A program made the translations under genes and the position numbers. Of a stretch of 53,638 bases of DNA, positions 9,289 through 48,716 are shown piece after piece; position 1 is the stretch's first letter; each line of letters starts with the position of its first letter. The stretch lies in the NCBI GenBank assembly GCA_964355035.1, contig CAYHCU010000001.1:1-53638 (forward strand). The letters are read 5' to 3'. The notes beneath the pieces are model-generated. The model saw only the letters and a list, made by a program, of their open reading frames with translations. It had not been told where the DNA came from and did no database searches. The stretch comes from an uncultured Flavobacteriales bacterium. Lineage in GTDB: Bacteria > Bacteroidota > Bacteroidia > AKYH767-A > 2013-40CM-41-45.

Positions 9289-9703
9289 ACTATTACTTTT
9301 CTATAAAAGTAAAAGCCTCACCGCATTCCAAATATGACACAAATCACTTTAGCTTAGGGATTTGTCATGTTCTTATGTTTTTGGGGGATTTTGGCTCATT
9401 TTTGCGATAGTATTCAGAGGTTTGTTTACAGTTGAGCCATGGGAATAAATAGTGGAAGAAAAATTGTCCGCTCCTTAGAAAATGAAGGTGCCATAAGAAT
9501 TTAATTCCCTTTACTGTCGTGCCTAGAGATCCACGAGATCCCTGCGGGATGACAACCACGTAATTTAATAGGGAAGAGAGAAGGATAAGAACAACAAGAT
9601 TCTTTCAGAATTTTACTGTCTGCTTAAGCAAAATGTCTAAAGCAATGCAAACTAAATACATTTTCTTCATGAAAACAATTGTCACCATTATAAAACACGG
9701 CAA

Positions 9704-9751
9704 CTTCGAACTACGAATACCGAACATCGATTTTCGAACATCGAACATCGA
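9704..9751. repeat. Degenerate heptanucleotide array (CGAACAT/CGAATAC type)
   Basis: cttcgaactacgaataccgaacatcgattttcgaacatcgaacatcgaa, immediately 3-prime of the S4-domain gene. Confidence 0.85.
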
Positions 9752-9759
9752 AAAAACAT

Positions 9760-10294: not shown

Positions 10295-10423
10295 TGACTC
10301 CTATACTTACTCCTCACAAATAAAAAAGTGTCAAATCCATTTTCTGGTGAGCGAACAAAATTTCTCGCCTAATTTATATTTAAATCAGAAAGACTAAAGA
10401 TTTGCTGATGCAATTTTTTATGC

Positions 10424-10510
10424 TGAAAATCTGCGTATTTATCTGCGCCTTTCTGCGGGAAAAACTTAAAAACCAACTCGCATTAAATCACTCCACAACT
10501 TTTAATATTG
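10424..10510. repeat. Dispersed intergenic element, truncated or rearranged copy B
   Basis: gctgaaaatctgcgtatttatctgcgcctttctgcgggaaaaa..aaccaactcgcattaaatcactccacaacttttaat shares the ATCTGCG units and the cgcattaaatcactcc.caacttttaat tail with copy A. Confidence 0.65.
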
Positions 10511-14077: not shown

Positions 14078-14905
14078 ATGAAAAAAACAATTAATTTTAT
14101 TCTACTTGCTGTAATAGGAAGTATAGGATCAACTTCAGCACAATCACCTGCTGTAATTACCAGCGATAAAGCCGGATGGCATAAGATTGCAGAAACGACT
14201 GTTGATTTCAAAAAAGAACGAGACGAAATTTCAGTTTTAGTTGCGGATCGATTCGCAGCTGTACAATTTAAAGTGCAAGATGCTCCAATTGATTTAATTT
14301 CTCTCGAGGTTTTCTTTGAAAGCGGAGACAAACAAATTATCGATGTACGAACTCCAATTAAAGCACATAGCGAAAGTAAAGTGATCAATTTAAATGGCGG
14401 AGAACGTAGTTTAAAAAGCATTGTACTTATTTACAAAACACTTGCTAATAGTAAGGATGAAAAAGCTCATGTTGAAATCTGGGGCTTGAAAACTAACACG
14501 GATGAGAAAAAAGCTACCAGAGCGTCAACTATTCAAACACCAAGTTTGATGCTTAGTGACAGTAAAGGATGGCACAAAATTGGTTCAAGAACCGTAGATT
14601 TCGTAAAAGATCATGACGAATTTATTGTTGTTGGCTCCGACCGATTCTCTTCAATAAAATTTAAAGTTATCGATGCATCTGTTGTATTATTAAGTCTTGA
14701 AGTATACTATGAATCCGGTGACAAACAAAATATTAGTTTGAACTCACCTATCTCAGCAGGAACAGAGACTAAATCAATCGATTTGAATGGCGGAGAAAGA
14801 GATTTAAAGAAAATTGCATTTGATTATAAAACTATACCAAATCAGACAGCAGATAAAGCTACAGTTGAAGTTTGGGGACGCAAAACAAATTTAACAGTTA
14901 AGTAA
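14078..14905 (+). CDS. Secreted protein made of two tandem ~135-aa repeats (DUF2541/YaaI-like pattern, unverified)
   Basis: 275 aa with signal peptide. Half 1 is GWHKIAETTVDFKKERDEISV..DRFAAVQFKVQDAPIDLISLEVFFESGDKQ...NLNGGERSLKSI...AHVEIWGLKTN. Half 2 is GWHKIGSRTVDFVKDHDEFIV..DRFSSIKFKVIDASVVLLSLEVYYESGDKQ...DLNGGERDLKKI...ATVEVWGRKTN. Confidence 0.6.
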   Translation: MKKTINFILLAVIGSIGSTSAQSPAVITSDKAGWHKIAETTVDFKKERDEISVLVADRFAAVQFKVQDAPIDLISLEVFFESGDKQIIDVRTPIKAHSESKVINLNGGERSLKSIVLIYKTLANSKDEKAHVEIWGLKTNTDEKKATRASTIQTPSLMLSDSKGWHKIGSRTVDFVKDHDEFIVVGSDRFSSIKFKVIDASVVLLSLEVYYESGDKQNISLNSPISAGTETKSIDLNGGERDLKKIAFDYKTIPNQTADKATVEVWGRKTNLTVK

Positions 14906-16312: not shown

Positions 16313-18643
16313 ATGAACAAACTGACATGGTATCTTCGAACCTGCCAACTACTGATACTAATTATTTTATTTAGTTCAGCAATCTCCAGTGCTCAAACTT
16401 TTCAATGGGCAAAAAGTATTAAAAGCGAAGGCTTCGACGAAGGATATGATCTTGCAGTCGACCCTGATGGATATACTTACATTGCCGGAATGATGGAATA
16501 CGATACAGATTTTGGAAATGGTGTGATTTTAAGTTCCGCTGGAATTCACGACATCTTTCTTGCTAAATATACACCAACAGGAAGACTAGTTTGGGCAAAA
16601 AGAGCCGGCGGAAAAGGCGGTGATAAAATACAGTCAATCGTACTAGATGGCAACGGGCATATATATGTTGCAGGTGAATTTGAAGATACTTGTTACTGGG
16701 ATGGAATCATGAAAATAACAACCGGTCTTGGTATCAACAATATGTTCGTTGCAAAGTACGACACTTCCGGCCCTGTAATTTGGGTAAGTGATATTCACGG
16801 TGTAGGTGTATTGCATACTCGTGGATATGGTGTCACTTGTGACGCGCAAGGAAATGTGTATGCATGTGGTGGTACAAAAGGCGATACTTATCATGACTCA
16901 ACTTTTCTATTTACATCGGCAGGAGATTACGATGGTACCGTTGTAAAATTTGACCCCAATGGAAATTTTGTTTGGGCCCGCAGAATGGGTGGAGCTGACA
17001 GTGACAAAGCTTATGGAATCGTAAGCGACAACAACGGATCAATTTACGTGACAGGATATTTTGTAGGTACTGCTGATTTTGCTCCAGGTGTAAACTTAAA
17101 CGGCAATGGACATACTGATATTTTCCTTGCAAAATATAACACTGCCGGCACCTTGCAATGGGCAAAAATGGCAGGTGATACAGGTTTCGATCGTGGTTGG
17201 GATGTAACAATCAACGTAAATGGAGACATACTAATCACAGGAGAATTTCAAACCGGATATTTCGGACCAAATCTTGTATACTCTCGTGGTAATGAAGATA
17301 TGTTTTTAGCTTCCTATGACAGTAATGGAAATAATAACTGGGCACTCTCCGGTGGTGGACCGGAAGATGATATTGGTAGAGGAGTTTCACACGATACAGC
17401 TGGGAATATTTTTGTTGTTGGTGATTATGCCAGTGAAGGAATTTTTCAACCTGACACAGTTATCGCAAACGGCTATGCAGATGTCTTTCTTGCAAGCTAT
17501 AAATCTGATGGCTCAGCAATCAATTGGGTGCGTTCTATAGGCGGACTCGACAGTGATCGCGGACGTGGAGTTGGAACAGATCTTGCTGGTAATGTTTATA
17601 TCTGTGGAGAGTTCATTGATTCGATAAGATTTGATAACACGAATATGATTGGTGATACGTTGCTGGATATTTTTATTTCACGAGTGATACAATGTAATGC
17701 ACAATTATCGGCAACTGCAGAAAGTAAATGTAATGGTCAATGTGATGGCACCGGAGTTGCAATAGCGAGCGGTCAAAGTCCGTTTACTTACAATTGGTCA
17801 ACTACTCCCCCGCAATCAGGAGATGTGGCCACAGGTTTATGTGCAGGAAATTATATTGTAACAATTACGGATGCCGGCGGATGTACCGCTACAGCATATG
17901 TTAACTTAATTGATCCGCCTTTACTTCAGACTACAACATCCATTACAAATTCGCTTTGTGCAGGAGCATGTGATGGCATTGCAAATGTATCAGCAAACGG
18001 GAATGGGCCTTTTACTTATTTTTGGTCTACAACACCACCTCAAACAAATTCGACAGCTACTGCATTGTGTCAAGGAAATTATATTGTCATTACAACAGAT
18101 ATAGAAGGTTGCGCCAATACTTCTTCTGTATCATTGACCGATCCACTACCGCTTCAGATGACTTCAGTTATCACCAATTCTAATTGTGTAGGCTGTAATG
18201 ATGGAAGCATTAATCTATCAGTGAACGGAGGAACAACTTTATATCAATATCTTTGGTCTGATGGAAGCATTACAGAAGACTTGCAAAATATTCTTGCCGG
18301 CACATATAACATTTGTGTGACAGATGCGAACAATTGCACACTATGTGATACGTACATTGTTTTAGATTCAGGAAACGGAATAACAATAAACAACAATCAA
18401 GGCTATTCTATTTTCCCGAATCCATTTAACACCTTTACAACAATTCACCTGAACATTCCTGCAGGAGAAACTACAAAGGTTGTTTTATTTACCGCAACAG
18501 GACAAATTGCTTATCAAACCGAATTCAACGGTAATGAATTTCGATTGCCGGCAAACGATTTATCAAGTGGTGTTTATTTTTTGCAATTGAATAACAAAAT
18601 GTTCAATGGGATGAAGATGGTGCCGGTGATTGTTGGGAATTGA
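16313..18643 (+). CDS. T9SS cargo: SBBP beta-propeller repeats + 3 SprB-type repeats + C-terminal sorting domain
   Basis: 776 aa. Repeated W(A)K..GG...D.GY...D..G..Y..G.....DIFLAKY units (SBBP). Three C.G.CDG......G..PFTY.WS......TA..LC.GNYIV..TD..GC units (SprB repeat). C-terminal YSIFPNPFNTFTTIHL...GVYFLQL. Confidence 0.8.
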   Translation: MNKLTWYLRTCQLLILIILFSSAISSAQTFQWAKSIKSEGFDEGYDLAVDPDGYTYIAGMMEYDTDFGNGVILSSAGIHDIFLAKYTPTGRLVWAKRAGGKGGDKIQSIVLDGNGHIYVAGEFEDTCYWDGIMKITTGLGINNMFVAKYDTSGPVIWVSDIHGVGVLHTRGYGVTCDAQGNVYACGGTKGDTYHDSTFLFTSAGDYDGTVVKFDPNGNFVWARRMGGADSDKAYGIVSDNNGSIYVTGYFVGTADFAPGVNLNGNGHTDIFLAKYNTAGTLQWAKMAGDTGFDRGWDVTINVNGDILITGEFQTGYFGPNLVYSRGNEDMFLASYDSNGNNNWALSGGGPEDDIGRGVSHDTAGNIFVVGDYASEGIFQPDTVIANGYADVFLASYKSDGSAINWVRSIGGLDSDRGRGVGTDLAGNVYICGEFIDSIRFDNTNMIGDTLLDIFISRVIQCNAQLSATAESKCNGQCDGTGVAIASGQSPFTYNWSTTPPQSGDVATGLCAGNYIVTITDAGGCTATAYVNLIDPPLLQTTTSITNSLCAGACDGIANVSANGNGPFTYFWSTTPPQTNSTATALCQGNYIVITTDIEGCANTSSVSLTDPLPLQMTSVITNSNCVGCNDGSINLSVNGGTTLYQYLWSDGSITEDLQNILAGTYNICVTDANNCTLCDTYIVLDSGNGITINNNQGYSIFPNPFNTFTTIHLNIPAGETTKVVLFTATGQIAYQTEFNGNEFRLPANDLSSGVYFLQLNNKMFNGMKMVPVIVGN

Positions 18644-18837
18644 TAATTGAAAGTTGATAATGGACAGTTGATAATGGACAATTGATAATGGACAATTGAT
18701 AATGGACAGTTGATAATGGACAATTGATAATGGACAATTTATAATGGACAATGGATGAATGCTTACATCGCGTCAATTGTCAATTGTCAATTGTCAATTG
18801 TCCACTGTCCACTGTCCACTGTCCATTATCAATTATC
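18644..18837. repeat. Long imperfect hairpin built from heptamer-based repeats (TGATAATGGACAAT units versus AATTGTCAATTGTCC/ACTGTCC units)
   Basis: The left arm holds about seven ttgataatggaca(a/g)t units up to about 18755. The loop is tgaatgcttacatcgcg. The right arm is caattgtcaattgtcaattgtcaattgtccactgtccactgtccactgtccattatcaattatc. It fills the whole gap between two convergent genes. Confidence 0.9.
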
Positions 18838-31643: not shown

Positions 31644-32450
31644 CTAATTCAATTCACGACTATTATAAATTAATTTCTTAAATTGAATTTCAGCTCCGAT
31701 TGGATTTTTTGCCACATAATTCTCGACTCCACCAAAAGGAGTTCCTAATTGAATATTCAATTCAAAACTAAATTCACCATCAGTGGTAACCTGAGCTATT
31801 AAAACTTTATTTGTTGAATCGAGACCAACGGAACCTCCAAAAGATGCCCACGATCCATTCTCAGTAAAGAAAGTTTGTCCTTTACTGTCAGGTGCATTTA
31901 TCCCAAATGCTGCTAATTGTGTACTATCTAATCCAAAAACAGAAACAACTGAAATTGGAGAGGCGCGATATAAGCCATCTTTTGAACTAATCGAAATACC
32001 ACACAACGGATCTGAATTTTGTAATAACCCATCTACATTGACAATAGCACTAGTTGTATCTTTTGATTTTAAAACAGCAATATTAGCTTCCGAACCTGCG
32101 CAAACTGATACCCACGAATCAAGCATGACCGTGCTTTTCGTCAATCGAATATTGGGTATATCATTTGCTGTAAATCCGCCGAATTCTTCATTGTTAAAAA
32201 AATAAGTAGACGTTGAAAGCTTTAAAGGGTGGCCGGTTACACCATATGCTGCTTGAAATCGATACCTGGGAAGCATGTCCACAAAAATCCGATACGTTAC
32301 CGAACCGGCATGCAAGGCCTCGTTGCTCCCTATCTCATCAGCTTTATCAGAAATGTAGTATTTTTCAATAAAAATGCCTTCCAGACCTTGCTGTGCTTTT
32401 GCTAAAGCACCTTGCATTAATATTAATACCCCGACTAAATAGATTTTCAT
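31644..32450 (-). CDS. Secreted protein consisting only of the unnamed paralogous domain (no CTD)
   Basis: The track start at 32489 is TTG. ATG at 32450 gives MKIYLVGVLILMQGALAKAQ (signal peptide). GLEGIFIEKYYISDKADE...GSVTYRIFVDMLPRYRFQAAYGV...STVMLDSWVSV...NGSWASF...VLIAQVTTDGEFSFELNIQLGTPFGGVENYVAKNP. Confidence 0.75.
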   Translation of the reverse strand: MKIYLVGVLILMQGALAKAQQGLEGIFIEKYYISDKADEIGSNEALHAGSVTYRIFVDMLPRYRFQAAYGVTGHPLKLSTSTYFFNNEEFGGFTANDIPNIRLTKSTVMLDSWVSVCAGSEANIAVLKSKDTTSAIVNVDGLLQNSDPLCGISISSKDGLYRASPISVVSVFGLDSTQLAAFGINAPDSKGQTFFTENGSWASFGGSVGLDSTNKVLIAQVTTDGEFSFELNIQLGTPFGGVENYVAKNPIGAEIQFKKLIYNSRELN

Positions 32451-32536
32451 GAACTTCACTTTTTGATTGAACGCAAATTCATCAATCAAAAAGTGGTGAA
32501 CGTAAAATTTGGGTTATCGTTAGGTTAAATTTAGAA

Positions 32537-32680
32537 AATGGACAATGGACAATGGACAATGGACACCTGTCAGCGGTCAGCTATCCATTGTCCACTATCC
32601 ACTATCCACTATCCACTATCCATTGTCAATTGTCCACTATCCATTGTCCTTTATCAGTTGTTAATTGTCAGTTGTTAATT
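32537..32680. repeat. Heptamer-repeat hairpin, copy L (AATGGAC arm, tgtcagcggtcagc core, TATCCAC/TTGTCC arm)
   Basis: aatggacaatggacaatggacaatggacacc-tgtcagcggtcagc-tatccattgtccactatccactatccactatccactatccattgtcaattgtccactatccattgtcc... Overlaps the last codons of the four-helix-bundle gene. Confidence 0.9.
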
Positions 32681-33027
32681 TTTTTCGCTGTTTTTATACT
32701 TGCAGTCAGTATCCGAATTAACTCAACAACCTTACTCTTGAGAGCTTCATAAACCTCAACATTAATATAGCCGGTTCTCACTAACAGTTCTATCCAGTAT
32801 TCGGATTCACACGCTTCTTTTAATGAAATAGATAGCTTGTTTATGAAATCCGCTTTGCTTTGAGCCTGTTCTGCTTCACAAACATTTGCTCCGATTGAAG
32901 TGCCTGACCTTATGAGCTGCTTCGAAAGAATATATTCTCTTCTTATTTCTTGTAAATTTCTTCCCTGCTTAACTATTTCTAAAGCAAAGTCAAAACTTTT
33001 TGTTTTTAAAATATTCTTCTTTTCCAT
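32668..33027 (-). CDS. Four-helix-bundle protein (23S rRNA intervening-sequence protein family)
   Basis: ATG at 33027 gives MEKKNILKTKSFDFALEIVKQGRNLQEIRREYILSKQLIRSGTSIGANVCEAEQAQSKADFINKLSISLKEACESEYWIELL. This is the characteristic Q(L/I)(I/L)RS.TSIGANI.EA....S..DF..K..I..KE..E..YWL pattern of the family. Confidence 0.85.
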   Translation of the reverse strand: MEKKNILKTKSFDFALEIVKQGRNLQEIRREYILSKQLIRSGTSIGANVCEAEQAQSKADFINKLSISLKEACESEYWIELLVRTGYINVEVYEALKSKVVELIRILTASIKTAKKINN

Positions 33028-33184
33028 TGATCCTCTATTTAAAGAGTCGCAATCTAACAAATGTTTCCTCTGAAAAATTTCAAAAAACAATTTTCACTAA
33101 CGTAACATCCATCAAAGAATAGAATTTTATCAAACAAATTATGAGTGCTTACCCAACCACTTTCAATTTGCCGGTAGCTACAAT

Positions 33185-33334
33185 ATTGTCCATTATGCAC
33201 TGTCAATTGATAATGGATAGTGGATAATGGATAATGGATAATGGACAATTGATAATGGACATGTGTCAGCAGTCAGCTATCCATTGTCAATTATCAATTG
33301 TCCATTATCCATTGTCCTTTGTCAATTGTCAATT
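33185..33334. repeat. Heptamer-repeat hairpin, copy R (same orientation and same core as copy L)
   Basis: ...cactgtcaattgataatggatagtggataatggataatggataatggacaattgataatggaca-tgtgtcagcagtcagc-tatccattgtcaattatcaattgtccattatccattgtcctttgtcaattgtcaatt. Overlaps the stop codon of the 33329-35233 gene. Confidence 0.9.
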
Positions 33335-35233
33335 CTTCACCAACCGAGTCACTGCTGATTTCTCTCCTGAAATAAATTGCAATAAATAAATTCCGGATGA
33401 AAGCGATTTTAAATCGACTACTTTACTTCCGTTCATCATTTCGGTGATTACCACTTTTCCTAAAGCATCAATAACGTTTACGGTAACCGCTCCTGTTGAA
33501 AATTTATTGACATCTATGGTAATGAATTCTGAAGACGGATTAGGAAAGAAATGAATGCCTTGACTTTCTAAATCATTTACACCATTTACATTTACAAATA
33601 TAGACGATGATGTGCCTACGCATCCATTAAGATCTGTTACAGCTACTGAATAATCTCCATCCACTAAGGCTGTATAAGATTGAGCATTTGCTCCACCAAT
33701 TAAAACACCATTTAAGTACCACTGAAATGCTGCATATCCTTGCGTGCTTACTACATTTCCTACTGCACTAATCGCCGGAAATGGATTTGATAATTCTGTC
33801 AAGGACAACGTTGTTGTACTATCAAGACCATTGCTTGCTGTGGCTGGAAAATCATATGTTCCTGCTGTATAGCTATTCCCAAAATAAGTATAAACGGTTC
33901 CATTGCAATATTCACCATTTATTGTATTCGTGTACGGCTGAATAAAAGAATACTCAGCATCAAAATAAGCAACTTGATTTCCTCCTTCTAAACGACTCCA
34001 TGCAAATGCTGCTTGATTGACAACCGGATTAATTACCACTTTAGGCTGGGGATTTGTGAGCCCTGAATAATTATCTACATAGGTATAAAACAAATAATTC
34101 CAAGAAAATGGACTAGCCAAATTGAAATTATTATAACAATATGGCAAAATAGAATTCGTGCTGTCAAGGTAGGTTACCAAAAAATTGTTGTTTGCCGGAT
34201 CATAAGAAATATCAGGTTGAATATCATTCGTACTGTTGTCAATTATAGCCAAATAATTCCAATAATCTGAATAATGTGCGACCATATTATAGTACCCCAA
34301 AATGTCATAGTCAGTTCCATCACCTAAATAATCCCGCTCTAATAAAATTACTGCAGTCAGTCCTGAACTATCATTGTCTATTACATTTGACTGAACAGAA
34401 ATTTTAGGGTTTCTGCAAATATTATTGCTTGTAGCAAGACTAAACGAATCTACTCTTACCGGAGTTGTAAAATAATTATTTACTATCGCTTGATTGTGAC
34501 AAGAGTAAATATGCCCATTTCTATCCTCAGGGAAAGCTAGTTGTTCGTAAGCAATAAAGTAACGTCCATTTGATGCTGAGGCACTTTTTCCATAAGCTAT
34601 TGACAAATTTCTATAGTACGAGGAAGTGTTAGCTACCGGTAATTGACTAAAACTTGTTCCTCCATCAATAGAAATGTAATAACCAATGGAATCTTGCAAT
34701 GGACTAGTTTGAGAATAAGCTAACGCAATTGAATATGGCGAAGAAGCAAGGGAAGGATTACGATAATCTGTCGCCATTACAACATTATATGTTTGATTAG
34801 GAGAAACGCCTGTGTTTAATGGTGAATCAATATAAGAATAGCTATTAGCGTCATATCTATCAATAAAAATTAAATAGGTAGAATTTATTAAATCATGACG
34901 TACACCTACTAAAAACAAAGTAAGGTTAGCGGCGTCAGTTCCTGCAACAACAAGGTCCAGGGAACTATATTCTACACCTGAAAATGAATAGGAATCTACA
35001 GTCTCCCAAAATTCACCATTTGATTTCGAACAACGAATGGTTATGCCTCCTTCGCCTAAGCCTGCATCGTAAGTAGCAAAAGTTTCATAGACCCAGCCAT
35101 TGAAAGCTACGTCTAATTGCACTTTAGACTGATCAACTGTTGGATCGGGTTTTGGTTTAGTATCAGAGCCATTACCCATAACACTAAAAGTAGAAATCAA
35201 TGCAATAAAAAATAAGTAGATGTTCCTTTTCAT
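33329..35233 (-). CDS. T9SS cargo with possible BNR/Asp-box beta-propeller region
   Basis: ATG at 35233 gives MKRNIYLFFIALISTFSVMG (signal peptide). Asp-box-like SKSNGEFWE and SIDGGTSFS. An Ig-like unit (FQWYLNGVLIGGANAQSYTALVDGDYSVAVTDLNGC). C-terminal IHFFPNPSSEFITIDV...GIYLLQF. Confidence 0.6.
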   Translation of the reverse strand: MKRNIYLFFIALISTFSVMGNGSDTKPKPDPTVDQSKVQLDVAFNGWVYETFATYDAGLGEGGITIRCSKSNGEFWETVDSYSFSGVEYSSLDLVVAGTDAANLTLFLVGVRHDLINSTYLIFIDRYDANSYSYIDSPLNTGVSPNQTYNVVMATDYRNPSLASSPYSIALAYSQTSPLQDSIGYYISIDGGTSFSQLPVANTSSYYRNLSIAYGKSASASNGRYFIAYEQLAFPEDRNGHIYSCHNQAIVNNYFTTPVRVDSFSLATSNNICRNPKISVQSNVIDNDSSGLTAVILLERDYLGDGTDYDILGYYNMVAHYSDYWNYLAIIDNSTNDIQPDISYDPANNNFLVTYLDSTNSILPYCYNNFNLASPFSWNYLFYTYVDNYSGLTNPQPKVVINPVVNQAAFAWSRLEGGNQVAYFDAEYSFIQPYTNTINGEYCNGTVYTYFGNSYTAGTYDFPATASNGLDSTTTLSLTELSNPFPAISAVGNVVSTQGYAAFQWYLNGVLIGGANAQSYTALVDGDYSVAVTDLNGCVGTSSSIFVNVNGVNDLESQGIHFFPNPSSEFITIDVNKFSTGAVTVNVIDALGKVVITEMMNGSKVVDLKSLSSGIYLLQFISGEKSAVTRLVKN

Positions 35234-46610: not shown

Positions 46611-46768
46611 TCTAGGCACGACAGTAAACCGAATTTCGGAATGCGGATTTCGGATTTCGGATTAGGCGGGAGTTTTTATTCTCAGCCTGGTAAATGAATG
46701 TGACCTTTTTATATTCATAGCTTATGCAGTATGAAAATCCGCAATCACCAAAGCGAAATCCGAAATCA
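46611..46768. repeat. CGGATTT-family heptamer arms bracketing a ~70-nt spacer, preceded by an 18-nt motif shared with 9510-9527
   Basis: tctaggcacgacagtaaa (46611-46628), then gaatttcggaatgcggatttcggatttcggatt (46631-46663), a spacer, then aaaatccgcaatcaccaaagcgaaatccgaaatc (46734-46768). Confidence 0.8.
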
Positions 46769-46821
46769 TTCCTCCTTTTGCCTTAACTTTTCGTATCTTC
46801 GTAGCCGATTAAAAAATACGA

Positions 46822-48057
46822 ATGGAAGAATCAGGATTTGATGCATTTAATTTTAGTGACGACTTACTAGATGGTCTTTATACCATGGGTTATGACAAGC
46901 CTACACCAATTCAAAATAGTGTAATTCCTGCTATTTTAGCTCGAAAAGACGTTATTGCTTGCGCACAAACAGGAACAGGAAAAACTGCTGCTTACTTACT
47001 GCCGACTTTACAGCAGATTTCCGATAGCAAAACTCCCCATACAGCAGCCCTTATTTTAGCACCGACACGCGAACTTGCTGTTCAAATAGACCAGGCTTTT
47101 CAAGGTTTCGCATACTTCACTCATGCCAGTTCAATTGCCGTTTATGGTGGAAATGACGGTTTCTCATTTGATCGCGAAAAGAAAGCGCTCATGCAAGGTA
47201 CCTCTGTTATTATTGCCACTCCCGGTCGTTTACTCAGTCATTTGAAATTGGGCTATGTGAAAATGGATCAACTTGAAACTCTCATTCTCGACGAAGCAGA
47301 TAAAATGCTCGACATGGGTTTCTATGATGACATCATGCTGATCAATAAATTTTTGCCGGCGAAAAAACAAATTCTATTGTTTAGTGCTACCATGCCTGTG
47401 AAAATTCGTCCGCTGGCAAAAAAATTATTGCATGATCCTGTCGAAATAAATATTGCTATCAGTAAACCTGCAAGTGGTGTTGATCAAAAAGCGTATGTTC
47501 TTTTCGATGATCAAAAAAATAATTTGATAATTCATCTTTTAGCTGAACGGAAAATAAGTACAGCCTTAATATTTGCTTCAACAAAAATATCTGTTAAAAC
47601 GCTGGAGAAGGAATTGCAAAAACGAAACCTTCCTGCTGCAGCAATTCATAGTGACCTCACACAGGAAATGCGCGAAAGCGTTTTACTGAATTTCAAAAAC
47701 AGAAAAGTTCCTGTTCTTATTGCTACAGATATTTTATCGAGAGGAATTGACATTGAAAACATCGGACTTGTTATCAATTACGATGTGCCTGCAGATGCAG
47801 AAGATTATGTGCATCGTGTGGGTAGGACTGCACGAGCAGAAACTACAGGAGAAGCAATTACATTCATCAGTCAGAAGGATCAGGCAAAATTTGTACAGAT
47901 AGAAACTTTCATTGAAAGTGAAATCCCAAAAATTCCTTTACCGGAATCAGTAGGTGTTGGTCCGGTCTGGAACCCGACTGAAAAAAAGAAAACAGGTTTC
48001 GGTGGTCGAAGGAACTTTTCGAACAAGAAAAAATCTAATCACGGTCCGAAAAAATAA
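46822..48057 (+). CDS. DEAD-box ATP-dependent RNA helicase
   Basis: 411 aa. Q-motif GYDKPTPIQ, AQTGTGKT, PTRELA, DEAD, SAT, HRVGRTAR and a basic C-terminal tail. Confidence 0.95.
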   Translation: MEESGFDAFNFSDDLLDGLYTMGYDKPTPIQNSVIPAILARKDVIACAQTGTGKTAAYLLPTLQQISDSKTPHTAALILAPTRELAVQIDQAFQGFAYFTHASSIAVYGGNDGFSFDREKKALMQGTSVIIATPGRLLSHLKLGYVKMDQLETLILDEADKMLDMGFYDDIMLINKFLPAKKQILLFSATMPVKIRPLAKKLLHDPVEINIAISKPASGVDQKAYVLFDDQKNNLIIHLLAERKISTALIFASTKISVKTLEKELQKRNLPAAAIHSDLTQEMRESVLLNFKNRKVPVLIATDILSRGIDIENIGLVINYDVPADAEDYVHRVGRTARAETTGEAITFISQKDQAKFVQIETFIESEIPKIPLPESVGVGPVWNPTEKKKTGFGGRRNFSNKKKSNHGPKK

Positions 48058-48310: not shown

Positions 48311-48716
48311 ATGATTTCGGAATTCGGATTGGGGATTTCGGATTGACCACAACACGAATTCTTGGTCACATTCATAAATTCCGAGAGTGAGTTCATTGGT
48401 TGCGGAAGCACTATAATTTTTTTGTCCCACAGAAACCGAATATAGACTTATTTTCTCATTGTAAAATCTGCGTTTGATCTGCGTATTCCGCGATATCTGC
48501 GGGAGAAAATTAAACTGCATTTATTTCCCGCAGATATCGCGGAATACGCAGATCAAACGCAGATTCAATGTGACTAAAGTCCATTTTCTCTTCTGAAAAT
48601 TTTCCGGGTATTCTCAGGAAAAAAAATTGAAATGCTCTCACATTAAATTGCGCCCCAACTATTAATACTGCCCTCGATTAAGCGCAATCCGAATTCCAAA
48701 ATCCGAAATCCGAAAT
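48311..48716. repeat. Composite element: inverted CGGATTT-family heptamer arms enclosing ~340 nt of cargo (includes dispersed-element copy C)
   Basis: Left arm atgatttcggaattcggattggggatttcggatt (48311-48344). Right arm aatccgaattccaaaatccgaaatccgaaat (48686-48716). Lies between convergent genes. Confidence 0.8.
48404..48666. repeat. Dispersed intergenic element, copy C, containing a perfect 40-bp inverted repeat
   Basis: 48465-48504 (aatctgcgtttgatctgcgtattccgcgatatctgcggga) is the exact reverse complement of 48526-48565, with a 21-nt loop. The tail caatgtgactaaagtccatttt...ctgaaaattttccggg...aaaaaaaattgaaatgctctcacattaaattgcgccccaactattaat aligns with copy A. Confidence 0.9.

Follow-up and report, generated by a model that had tools for sequence, protein, structure and literature searches.

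A four-helix-bundle protein gene between direct heptamer-repeat hairpins in a Flavobacteriales genome, and complementary heptamer arms around its relatives

The gene and its flanking hairpins

We analyzed a 53,638-nucleotide stretch of DNA from an uncultured Flavobacteriales bacterium (assembly GCA_964355035.1, contig CAYHCU010000001.1), called the window here over its whole length, and focused on a gene for a four-helix-bundle (4HB) protein that lies between two hairpins built of tandem 7-nt repeats. The gene, of the S23p or 23S rRNA intervening sequence (IVS) type, occupies positions 32668 to 33027 on the minus strand and encodes 119 amino acids that start with MEKKN, followed by a TGA stop. 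Its product is 100% identical to the public gene call P0002, and a homology search returned public gene calls of 119 and 130 amino acids as matches. The protein scores 93.9 bits against PF05635 (cut-off, 33.8; profile positions 2 to 105 of 106) and 106.4 bits against TIGR02436 (cut-off, 24). It contains the family motifs RSGTSIGAN, SKxDF, and KEAxExxYW and keeps all 27 columns that are invariant in an alignment with 29 relatives. In sequence-level searches, the family alignment profile matched PDB 2RLD (five chains, E value of 1e-55) and PDB 2GSC (9e-4). Judged by these matches, the gene is a full-length member of PF05635/TIGR02436.

Searches with Pfam/TIGR profiles, PADLOC, and PHROGs revealed no recognizable nuclease, recombinase, or transposase domain in the 4HB product. 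PHROGs gave only weak, meaningless matches, and the PADLOC models matched no defense-system family, for which reason a known antiphage defense gene was rejected as a candidate. No further 4HB genes or remnants were found in the window; a weak match at 14203 to 14322 (E value of 0.07) lacked Pfam support. The neighbors of the gene encode a protein sorted by the type IX secretion system (T9SS), Ppx, and PPK.

Two composite hairpins flank the gene, the left one at 32537 to 32680 (on the plus strand, (AATGGAC)4, core, and complementary array) and the right one at 33201 to 33334 (array, core, and array). In the sense direction of the gene, i.e., on the minus strand, the T9SS stop codon is followed by the outer purine-rich heptamer arm P1 (33278 to 33334, with AATTGAC/AATGGAY units in sense), the core that forms the loop of the upstream hairpin (33262 to 33277), and the pyrimidine-rich arm Y1 (33201 to 33261, with ATTATCC/ATTGTCC units in sense). 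A spacer of about 160 to 170 nt (33028 to 33200), with an extra short stem at 33185 to 33226, separates the upstream hairpin from the start codon. Directly 3' of the gene lies the purine-rich array P2 (32582 to 32680), followed by the core and loop of the downstream hairpin (32566 to 32581) and the outer pyrimidine-rich arm Y2 (32537 to 32565, (ATTGTCC)4 in sense). The next co-oriented gene, a 268-amino-acid gene call with its start at 32450, begins after a further 87 nt or so. The repeats reach into the coding sequences on both sides, as the preliminary description of this DNA had stated: P2 covers the final four codons of the 4HB gene together with its TGA stop, and the TGA stop of the T9SS gene (33329 to 33331) lies inside the first repeat unit of P1.

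The same description had placed the 119-amino-acid gene between two direct copies of one hairpin, which agrees with both the family matches and the alignment of the two composites (82% identity over 110 nt, ungapped). The arms of both open with the units AAAGGAC AATGGAT ARTGGAC AATTGAY, and P2, which runs through AATTAAC/AACTGAC units and then AAAGGAC, AATGGAT, AGTGGAC, etc., copies P1 in direct orientation, its (AGTGGAT)n run being expanded. GTCAGCNGTCAGC is the core sequence of this organism's composite hairpin; the upstream core reads TGTGTCAGCAGTCAGC on the plus strand and GCTGACTGCTGACACA in sense, and the downstream core reads CCTGTCAGCGGTCAGC and GCTGACCGCTGACAGG, respectively. A conserved core had also been claimed, and it is indeed present in the same orientation in both copies, but it consists of two heptamer units itself (GTCAGCN twice). 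Because they share this core and a common order of units, the two composites are true direct duplicates. By this comparison, the entire arm-core-arm composite is duplicated in direct orientation, so that each side can fold alone or Y1 and P2 can pair across the gene.

Folding predictions bear out the hairpins, with both copies more stable than shuffled sequence (z scores of -3.2 to -9.9). The left element reaches -55.7 kcal/mol on the sense strand (z = -6.9) and -36.8 kcal/mol on the other strand (z = -3.2), and the right element reaches -57.0 kcal/mol (z = -7.4) and -69.2 kcal/mol (z = -9.9), respectively. For the 821-nt sense RNA of the whole locus, the minimum-energy and the centroid folds both predict a four-way junction of -243.7 kcal/mol (z = -9.2), in which Y1 is base-paired with P2 on the other side of the gene, one local hairpin lies under each core, and the entire structure is closed where the ends of P1 and Y2 meet. 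One part of Y1 is predicted to pair locally with P1 and the rest with P2.

A third, related hairpin without cargo had been noted elsewhere in the window and was recovered at 18638 to 18837. It is composed of (AATTGATAATGGAC)n, a loop, and (GTCAATT/GTCCACT)n, with units like those of the 4HB elements, has a predicted energy of -84.4 kcal/mol (z = -8.1), and takes up precisely the space that separates two convergent T9SS genes. A T9SS C-terminal sorting domain is present in the products of at least six genes between 16313 and 35299, and such a gene directly precedes both the armed 4HB gene and the empty hairpin.

No terminator-like sites (GC-rich stem plus T-run) were found in 32300 to 33600, and the hairpins were therefore rejected as intrinsic terminators. 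Rfam matched no family, rRNA included, in the whole window, and the hairpins showed only sub-threshold resemblance to microRNA precursors. Units of P1 yield sigma-70-like sites (TTGACA-N17-GATAAT) that match at 11 of 12 positions. In total, the heptamer arrays in 32600 to 33335 contain 16 sigma-70-like sites compared to 4.9 expected, although Bacteroidota use a different consensus. Arrays of TTGACAA/TTGATAA automatically produce near-consensus sigma-70 sites with 17-nt spacing, and the excess may thus be a by-product of period 7.

Heptamer arms at related loci

The preliminary description had named an association of hairpins and 4HB genes beyond chance as the test of its idea, and such an association was found among the relatives of the gene. 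We compared 80 loci encoding relatives (47 to 64% identical), each from a different species genome, in Bacteroidota, Acidobacteriota, Campylobacterota, Bacillota, Spirochaetota, Cloacimonadota, Pseudomonadota, Chlorobi, Verrucomicrobiota, and Fusobacteriota. These are the best-scoring relatives from a collection of representative genomes, which yielded no locus of the window's own organism; they represent one subfamily, and some sit at orthologous sites. Arrays were called by Tandem Repeats Finder (TRF), on whose thresholds the calls depend, and counted for the 76 loci whose flanks extended for 200 nt or more in each direction. A period-7 array was detected within 200 nt upstream of the gene in 62/76 loci and downstream in the same number; 54 of the 76 had arrays on both sides, and only 6 on neither. 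Decayed inverted heptamers are visible by eye in L010, L020, and L049, which are without a TRF call. Period-7 arrays cover 17.1% of the ±200-nt flanks versus 0.49% of the other 729 kb, an enrichment of about 35-fold.

Furthermore, the repeat units of the arms are locus specific, yet the two arms within one locus are complementary. Allowing one mismatch at most, complementary arms occur in 85% of the matched loci versus 17% of the pairings across loci, and exact complementarity occurs in 49% versus 2.7%. The median duplex energy is -52.8 kcal/mol for matched arms and -35.5 kcal/mol for mismatched arms (P = 1.5e-13), and the stems have a median of 30 bp, of which 89% are Watson-Crick pairs. Flank enrichment and locus-specific complementarity together show that the association exceeds chance. 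The consensus A[AG]T[GT][GAC]AN fits 77% of the arm units; for the remaining heptamer arrays of the same loci the figure is 36%, and for random 7-mers it is 8%. The arms also have a fixed polarity: the mean purine fraction is 0.68 for the upstream arm and 0.37 for the downstream arm, and the simple reverse order, with a pyrimidine arm upstream and a purine arm downstream, was not observed among the loci compared. By these measures, the gene and its arms look like one unit across about ten phyla, and the link between the gene and the repeats is real and general at the level of sequence.

Arms of this kind also occur on plasmids and viral contigs. Three 4HB genes on Nostoc/Anabaena plasmids, 42 to 50% identical to the query, have heptamer arms, e.g., (TAATTCG)4.7 with (AATTACG)4.7 and AAGTCGG with ACTTCCG, and 12 of the 16 4HB loci on viral contigs are armed as well.

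At a typical locus, the order is host stop codon, purine-rich arm, 4HB gene, complementary arm, and host start codon. The upstream arm starts at or within the stop codon of the host gene and ends 0 to 50 nt before the 4HB start. The downstream arm adjoins the 4HB stop codon or overlaps it, with the next host gene a few bases further. Both neighbors are co-oriented with the 4HB gene in 46/60 loci. The median distance of 53 nt between the host stop codon and the 4HB start codon leaves little room for a separate promoter; together with the co-orientation, it indicates that the gene is usually embedded in sense in a host transcription unit, like the intervening sequences of rRNA. In two Bacillota loci, tRNA genes follow 7 to 8 nt after the downstream arm (L034, 4494 to 4574; L076, 6385 to 6464), which places the module also in stable-RNA transcription units outside rRNA. 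Rfam detected only tRNAs in 12 related loci, and no Rfam family covered the arms.

As read from these loci, the normal design is a single stem whose inverted arms enclose the gene. The two flanking hairpins, which had been taken as the layout of the element, are therefore not the usual arrangement but a variant, in which each arm is a complete hairpin (P-core-Y on both sides). The closest case is L037, the only 1 of 73 loci with a two-hairpin layout, and its copies are inverted, including their loops. A full hairpin that is present only after the gene was found in three or so loci (L016, L048, and L074). The window is thus a rare elaboration of the single-stem design, with the usual outer borders (P1 ... 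Y2 between a host stop codon and a host gene).

Since 7 is not a multiple of 3, the arrays show start and stop codons in all three frames. Stop codons occur in the arm units at the frequency expected from letter-shuffled units, and we rejected them as a selected feature because base composition explains them. Stops that read inward in all three frames are present in 58/76 upstream and 55/76 downstream flanks. An NTG triplet (ATG, GTG, or TTG) is present in 78% of the upstream-arm units compared to 37% after letter shuffling (loci L009 to L088). Two gene calls also show irregularities: P0106 overruns the normal C terminus into the repeat arm and has a tail ending ...FTIHYPLF, and P0003 has an internal duplication of the RSGTSIGAN segment. 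Annotated ends of 4HB genes may often be distorted by heptamer arms.

Gain and loss of the module and its possible explanations

Filled and empty sites were compared for a family member at the argC-argD junction. In Bacteroides xylanisolvens XB1A (L031), it reads TAA, (TGAAGAA)n, 4HB gene, (TTCTTCA)n, and ATG. In four lineages whose ArgD proteins are 97%, 95%, 93%, and 89% identical to that of L031 (loci L099, L102, L108, and L109 to L112), the same junction is an empty spacer of 12 to 13 nt (TAAaaacaaagaattATG), and the DNA flanking the closest empty site is 93 to 96% identical to L031. A fifth lineage (ArgD, 85% identical; L103 to L107) has a 112-nt lone heptamer hairpin between argC and argD (positions 1889 to 2000; -46 kcal/mol), with ATTGACG/CGTAAAT units that are unlike the L031 arm unit. 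From the filled and empty sites it follows that arm, gene, and arm behave as one insertion/deletion unit, and the spacer is independently occupied by an empty hairpin. With AAAGAAT in the empty spacer and GAAGAAT as the arm unit, this single case is suggestive of an arm unit copied from the target site.

The proposal of a cassette that is gained and lost is therefore supported for the family; at the window site itself, syntenic relatives are lacking, as the nearest relatives of the neighboring T9SS gene are at most 50% identical and lie in unrelated, nonsyntenic contexts. A metagenome search with the hairpin core gave eight matches, all to unrelated (GTCAGCT)n-type arrays in GC-rich DNA without a nearby 4HB gene, showing that the core is not a marker of a dispersed family. 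Lone arrays elsewhere in the loci share the exact unit of the local 4HB arms in 25% of cases versus 2.4% across loci (P = 2e-5), which points to genome-specific unit "dialects" and links armed genes to empty hairpins. Other copies stay in place. In Flavobacterium, every one of the 24 contigs read (the protein was seen on 76 contigs; 10 places are shown) has the same 4HB copy between the gene for mevalonate diphosphate decarboxylase and that for mevalonate kinase, and the flanks of L009, L012, and L025 indicate the same mevalonate-pathway site in other Flavobacteriaceae. This fixed site suggests that some 4HB copies are old and stable.

Two known systems offer models for such a module. In Coxiella burnetii, a gene from this family is part of the IVS in helix 45 of the 23S rRNA. 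Tandem heptameric repeats (GACAGAT) of strain-variable copy number lie directly upstream of its start codon, and the RNase III cut falls where the first of them begins, within the stem of the inverted repeats (PMC4990558). The protein family is common to the window locus and the 23S rRNA IVSs with an S23p/4HB open reading frame (ORF) in Leptospira, Coxiella burnetii, Brucella, and Xanthomonas. As in these IVSs, the ORF of the window and those of its relatives are enclosed by stem-forming inverted repeats and lie in sense to the host transcript, and tandem heptamers adjoin the window ORF as they do in Coxiella. In contrast to the IVSs, the window copy lies between protein-coding genes, its arms are much longer (57 to 99 nt), and they form two direct composite hairpins instead of a single stem. 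With protein-coding genes on both flanks and no rRNA in the window according to Rfam, a strict 23S rRNA IVS, which would lie in helix 25 or 45 of that rRNA, was rejected; the window locus falls outside that class because it lies outside rRNA, while the cis-layout of an IVS is still common to both.

The second model is Avd, the accessory protein of diversity-generating retroelements (DGRs), which assembles into a barrel that is pentameric and carries a positive charge; the RNAs of DGRs have stem-loops that Avd binds, and sequences located distally around their template pair with one another (bioRxiv 10.1101/2023.10.23.563531). Avd, a homologous four-helix bundle, thus works with a structured RNA encoded beside its own gene, through stem-loops and a distal duplex. 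Unlike in a DGR, the partner sequences in the window are tandem heptamer arrays on both sides of the gene. Among the relatives of the 4HB protein, Avd is the closest whose function has been studied, and its RNA partners carry binding stem-loops; a 4HB pentamer that binds its own arms is therefore a reasonable idea. The earlier suggestion that the protein may act on the repeats can be placed here, since its support comes by homology, from the binding of RNA stem-loops by Avd.

Taking these comparisons together, we favor, with slightly more than even confidence, the interpretation that the window locus is a non-rRNA copy of an IVS-type 4HB module, i.e., a gene for about 115 amino acids set in complementary heptamer arrays. 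The module would be transcribed by read-through from the host gene, and its arms would form a double-stranded RNA stem of about 30 bp or more that hides the 4HB start region. RNase III would then cut the stem, and the module would be excised from the host transcript or insulated within it with little harm. Such tolerance would explain why the module is found in rRNA, beside tRNA genes, and in operon spacers. The 4HB protein would recognize stems of this type and, by analogy with Avd, is probably a pentameric nucleic-acid binder. Because direct repeats flank the gene in the window, recombination between the two hairpin copies could remove it, so that a lone hairpin resembling that at 18.6 kb would stay behind, and the reverse reaction could insert a gene into a lone hairpin. 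The layout, the statistics, the gain or loss at argC/argD, and the predicted folds come from the sequence data themselves, whereas we infer transcription together with the host gene, cleavage by RNase III, binding by the protein, and the route of recombination.

Several observations weigh against this interpretation. Processing of RNA outside rRNA is argued from analogy, and the RNA-specific signal in the stems is small: G-U wobble pairs number 69 in sense versus 46 in antisense orientation (P = 0.04), with 23 versus 19 loci in favor of either. Arms with near-perfect Watson-Crick pairing fit a palindrome that acts at the DNA level equally well. In the window, the inner arms are reversed in polarity compared to the usual layout, and the upstream hairpin ends about 160 nt before the start codon, so that a separate promoter for the gene may lie within the stem. 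The spacer (33028 to 33200) may indeed hold such a promoter, judging from one sigma-70-like site from 33166 to 33138 on the minus strand, the consensus of which differs from that of Bacteroidota promoters. No mobility enzyme was found with the 4HB module, no clear target-site duplication was detected at the junction compared (L031 versus the empty L108), and the single fixed site in the mevalonate pathway fits a stable, possibly useful gene rather than active mobility. Finally, independence of the 80 loci is incomplete, since they are the best-scoring relatives and some of them lie at orthologous sites; the Pfam family as a whole is not represented by them.

The most serious alternative, which we consider possible although clearly less probable, is an element that acts at the DNA level. 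Here, the arms would be terminal inverted repeats or form cruciform or hairpin DNA, the 4HB pentamer would be a mobility or maintenance factor, and lone hairpins would be nonautonomous copies. In the window, a circular molecule of gene and hairpin would have recombined into a resident lone hairpin and left the direct hairpin repeats that are seen there. Arms of about 30 bp with 89% Watson-Crick pairs and little G-U excess agree with this, as do the argC/argD junction, where the complete unit is either present or missing and another lineage has a lone hairpin, the exact match of lone arrays to the local arm unit (25% versus 2.4% across loci), the direct hairpin repeats of the window, and the hypothesis of a mobile element by Ralph and McClelland, which PMC4990558 quotes. 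However, the 4HB product has no recognizable nuclease, recombinase, or transposase domain, the L031-L108 junction pair shows no clear target-site duplication, and the arm sequences vary between copies, unlike the inverted repeats of insertion sequences. Moreover, an identical protein occurs in one genomic context only among the Flavobacterium contigs read. A conventional insertion sequence or miniature inverted-repeat transposable element (MITE) was rejected on the absence of a transposase domain, the differences of the arms between loci, and the lack of a clear duplication in the L031-L108 comparison. Roles at the DNA and the RNA level may also coexist.

Chance adjacency, in which a genome rich in intergenic heptamer hairpins (comparable to REP, STRR, or terminator-like repeats) happens to carry a 4HB gene between two of them, appears very unlikely. 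Hairpins do outnumber 4HB genes, and the window has arrays without a nearby 4HB gene at 495 to 559, 9702 to 9752, 18638 to 18837, 46633 to 46770, and 48313 to 48716. At the family level, though, the idea is already contradicted by the 35-fold enrichment, fixed polarity, and locus-specific complementarity in 80 relatives from many phyla; within the window, the two copies are true duplicates with a common core and unit order, and terminator-like T-runs are absent from 32300 to 33600.

We regard as highly improbable that the gene is the Avd accessory gene of a DGR, with the repeats as part of a template/variable repeat system. PF05635 proteins do resemble Avd, but the neighboring genes encode a T9SS-sorted protein, Ppx, and PPK, none of the 14 ORFs scanned encodes a reverse transcriptase, and the repeats are 7-nt tandem arrays and not a template/variable repeat pair; in addition, the relatives sit between housekeeping genes. 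This candidate was rejected on the missing reverse transcriptase and repeat pair. An assembly artefact, i.e., short repeats collapsed or mis-joined in a metagenome-assembled genome, is just as improbable in our view: although the source is short-read metagenome data, in which repeats are error prone, three assemblies from different samples have identical sequence over 2.4 to 8.4 kb (the two other assemblies of the same organism being 100% identical across the region), which argues against an artefact, and the same layout is present in isolate genomes and complete plasmids.

Wider relations and other repeats of the window

In a broader reading, 4HB genes with inverted heptamer arrays could represent a widespread, undescribed class of compact elements in many bacterial phyla, a view that we put forward only tentatively. 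IVS-like modules would settle in any transcribed spacer, ORF-less hairpins, including cyanobacterial ones of the STRR type, would be nonautonomous relatives, and the pentameric 4HB protein would bind, maintain, or spread the hairpins. The short tandemly repeated repetitive (STRR) sequences of cyanobacteria are intergenic tandem heptamers that often form hairpins. The three plasmid-borne 4HB genes of Nostoc/Anabaena are flanked by heptamer arrays of this kind, whereas the unit sequences in the window differ and its host is a member of the Bacteroidota. A full-text literature search found no published link between STRR sequences and 4HB genes and no description of heptamer arms around non-rRNA copies of the family, which does not prove that none exists.

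Likenesses to other element types are partial. Like MITEs, minimal insertion sequences, and REP/BIME repeats, the modules are compact and intergenic, have inverted ends, are present or absent between relatives, and have ORF-less copies that are more numerous. They differ from these in having no transposase fold and no clear target-site duplication and in their locus-specific tandem-repeat arms. In hok mRNA, a fold-back inhibition element and long-range pairing of the 5' and 3' ends close the mRNA around its ORF. The start region of the 4HB gene would likewise be hidden by pairing with its own 3' end, which is a pure analogy, and unlike in the hok system, neither an antisense RNA nor a toxin is present in the window.

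In a large-scale clustering study, "23S rRNA IVP" appears in the list of CRISPR-associated proteins. On the Anabaena cylindrica plasmid pANACY.01 (L123, 1015 to 3106), an armed 4HB gene lies between cas2 and cas1, a position that may be relevant to this listing. Arrays of 30 nt could perhaps be taken for CRISPR repeats as well.

PF05635/TIGR02436 is a very large family, with at least nearly 8,000 cluster representatives among the matches listed in one search. Structures of members have been solved, and its known function is confined to DGRs. The origin and role of rRNA intervening sequences and the heptamer repeats of bacteria are questions that have stood for decades. The finding that the gene is nearly always wrapped in a locus-specific stem, as a unit that comes and goes at operon junctions, turns three puzzles into one testable system. 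It provides a candidate ligand for the 4HB protein, namely, its own arms, and RNase III as a candidate processing step for the module, and tractable hosts are available in Bacteroides, Flavobacterium, and Nostoc.

The window contains further heptamer arrays apart from those described above. At 48313 to 48716, the arms (ATTTCGG)n (48313 to 48345) and (AATCCGA)n (48684 to 48716) enclose a noncoding insert of 340 nt, and the predicted fold (-166.6 kcal/mol) pairs these outer arms; a heptamer stem can thus carry cargo other than a 4HB gene. The insert itself contains a near-perfect palindrome of about 50 bp that is rich in "ctgcg" (48459 to 48570). An armed hairpin with a loop of about 95 nt, in which (ATTTCGG)n pairs with AAATCCG units, is located at 46633 to 46770 between a proprotein-convertase/dockerin gene and a DEAD-box helicase gene (46822 to 48057). 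The helicase gene and a small downstream ORF are therefore bracketed by arrays of the same unit, at 46633 to 46770 and 48313 to 48716. Two single arrays, (AGTTCAA)9 at 495 to 559 and (AACATCG)n at 9702 to 9752, have no complementary partner anywhere in the window; the unit of the former fits the family consensus A[AG]T[GT][GAC]AN. Finally, the motif "atctgcg...tctgcggga" recurs in two intergenic regions (10420 to 10470 and 48459 to 48570) and may represent a separate small repeat family of this genome.

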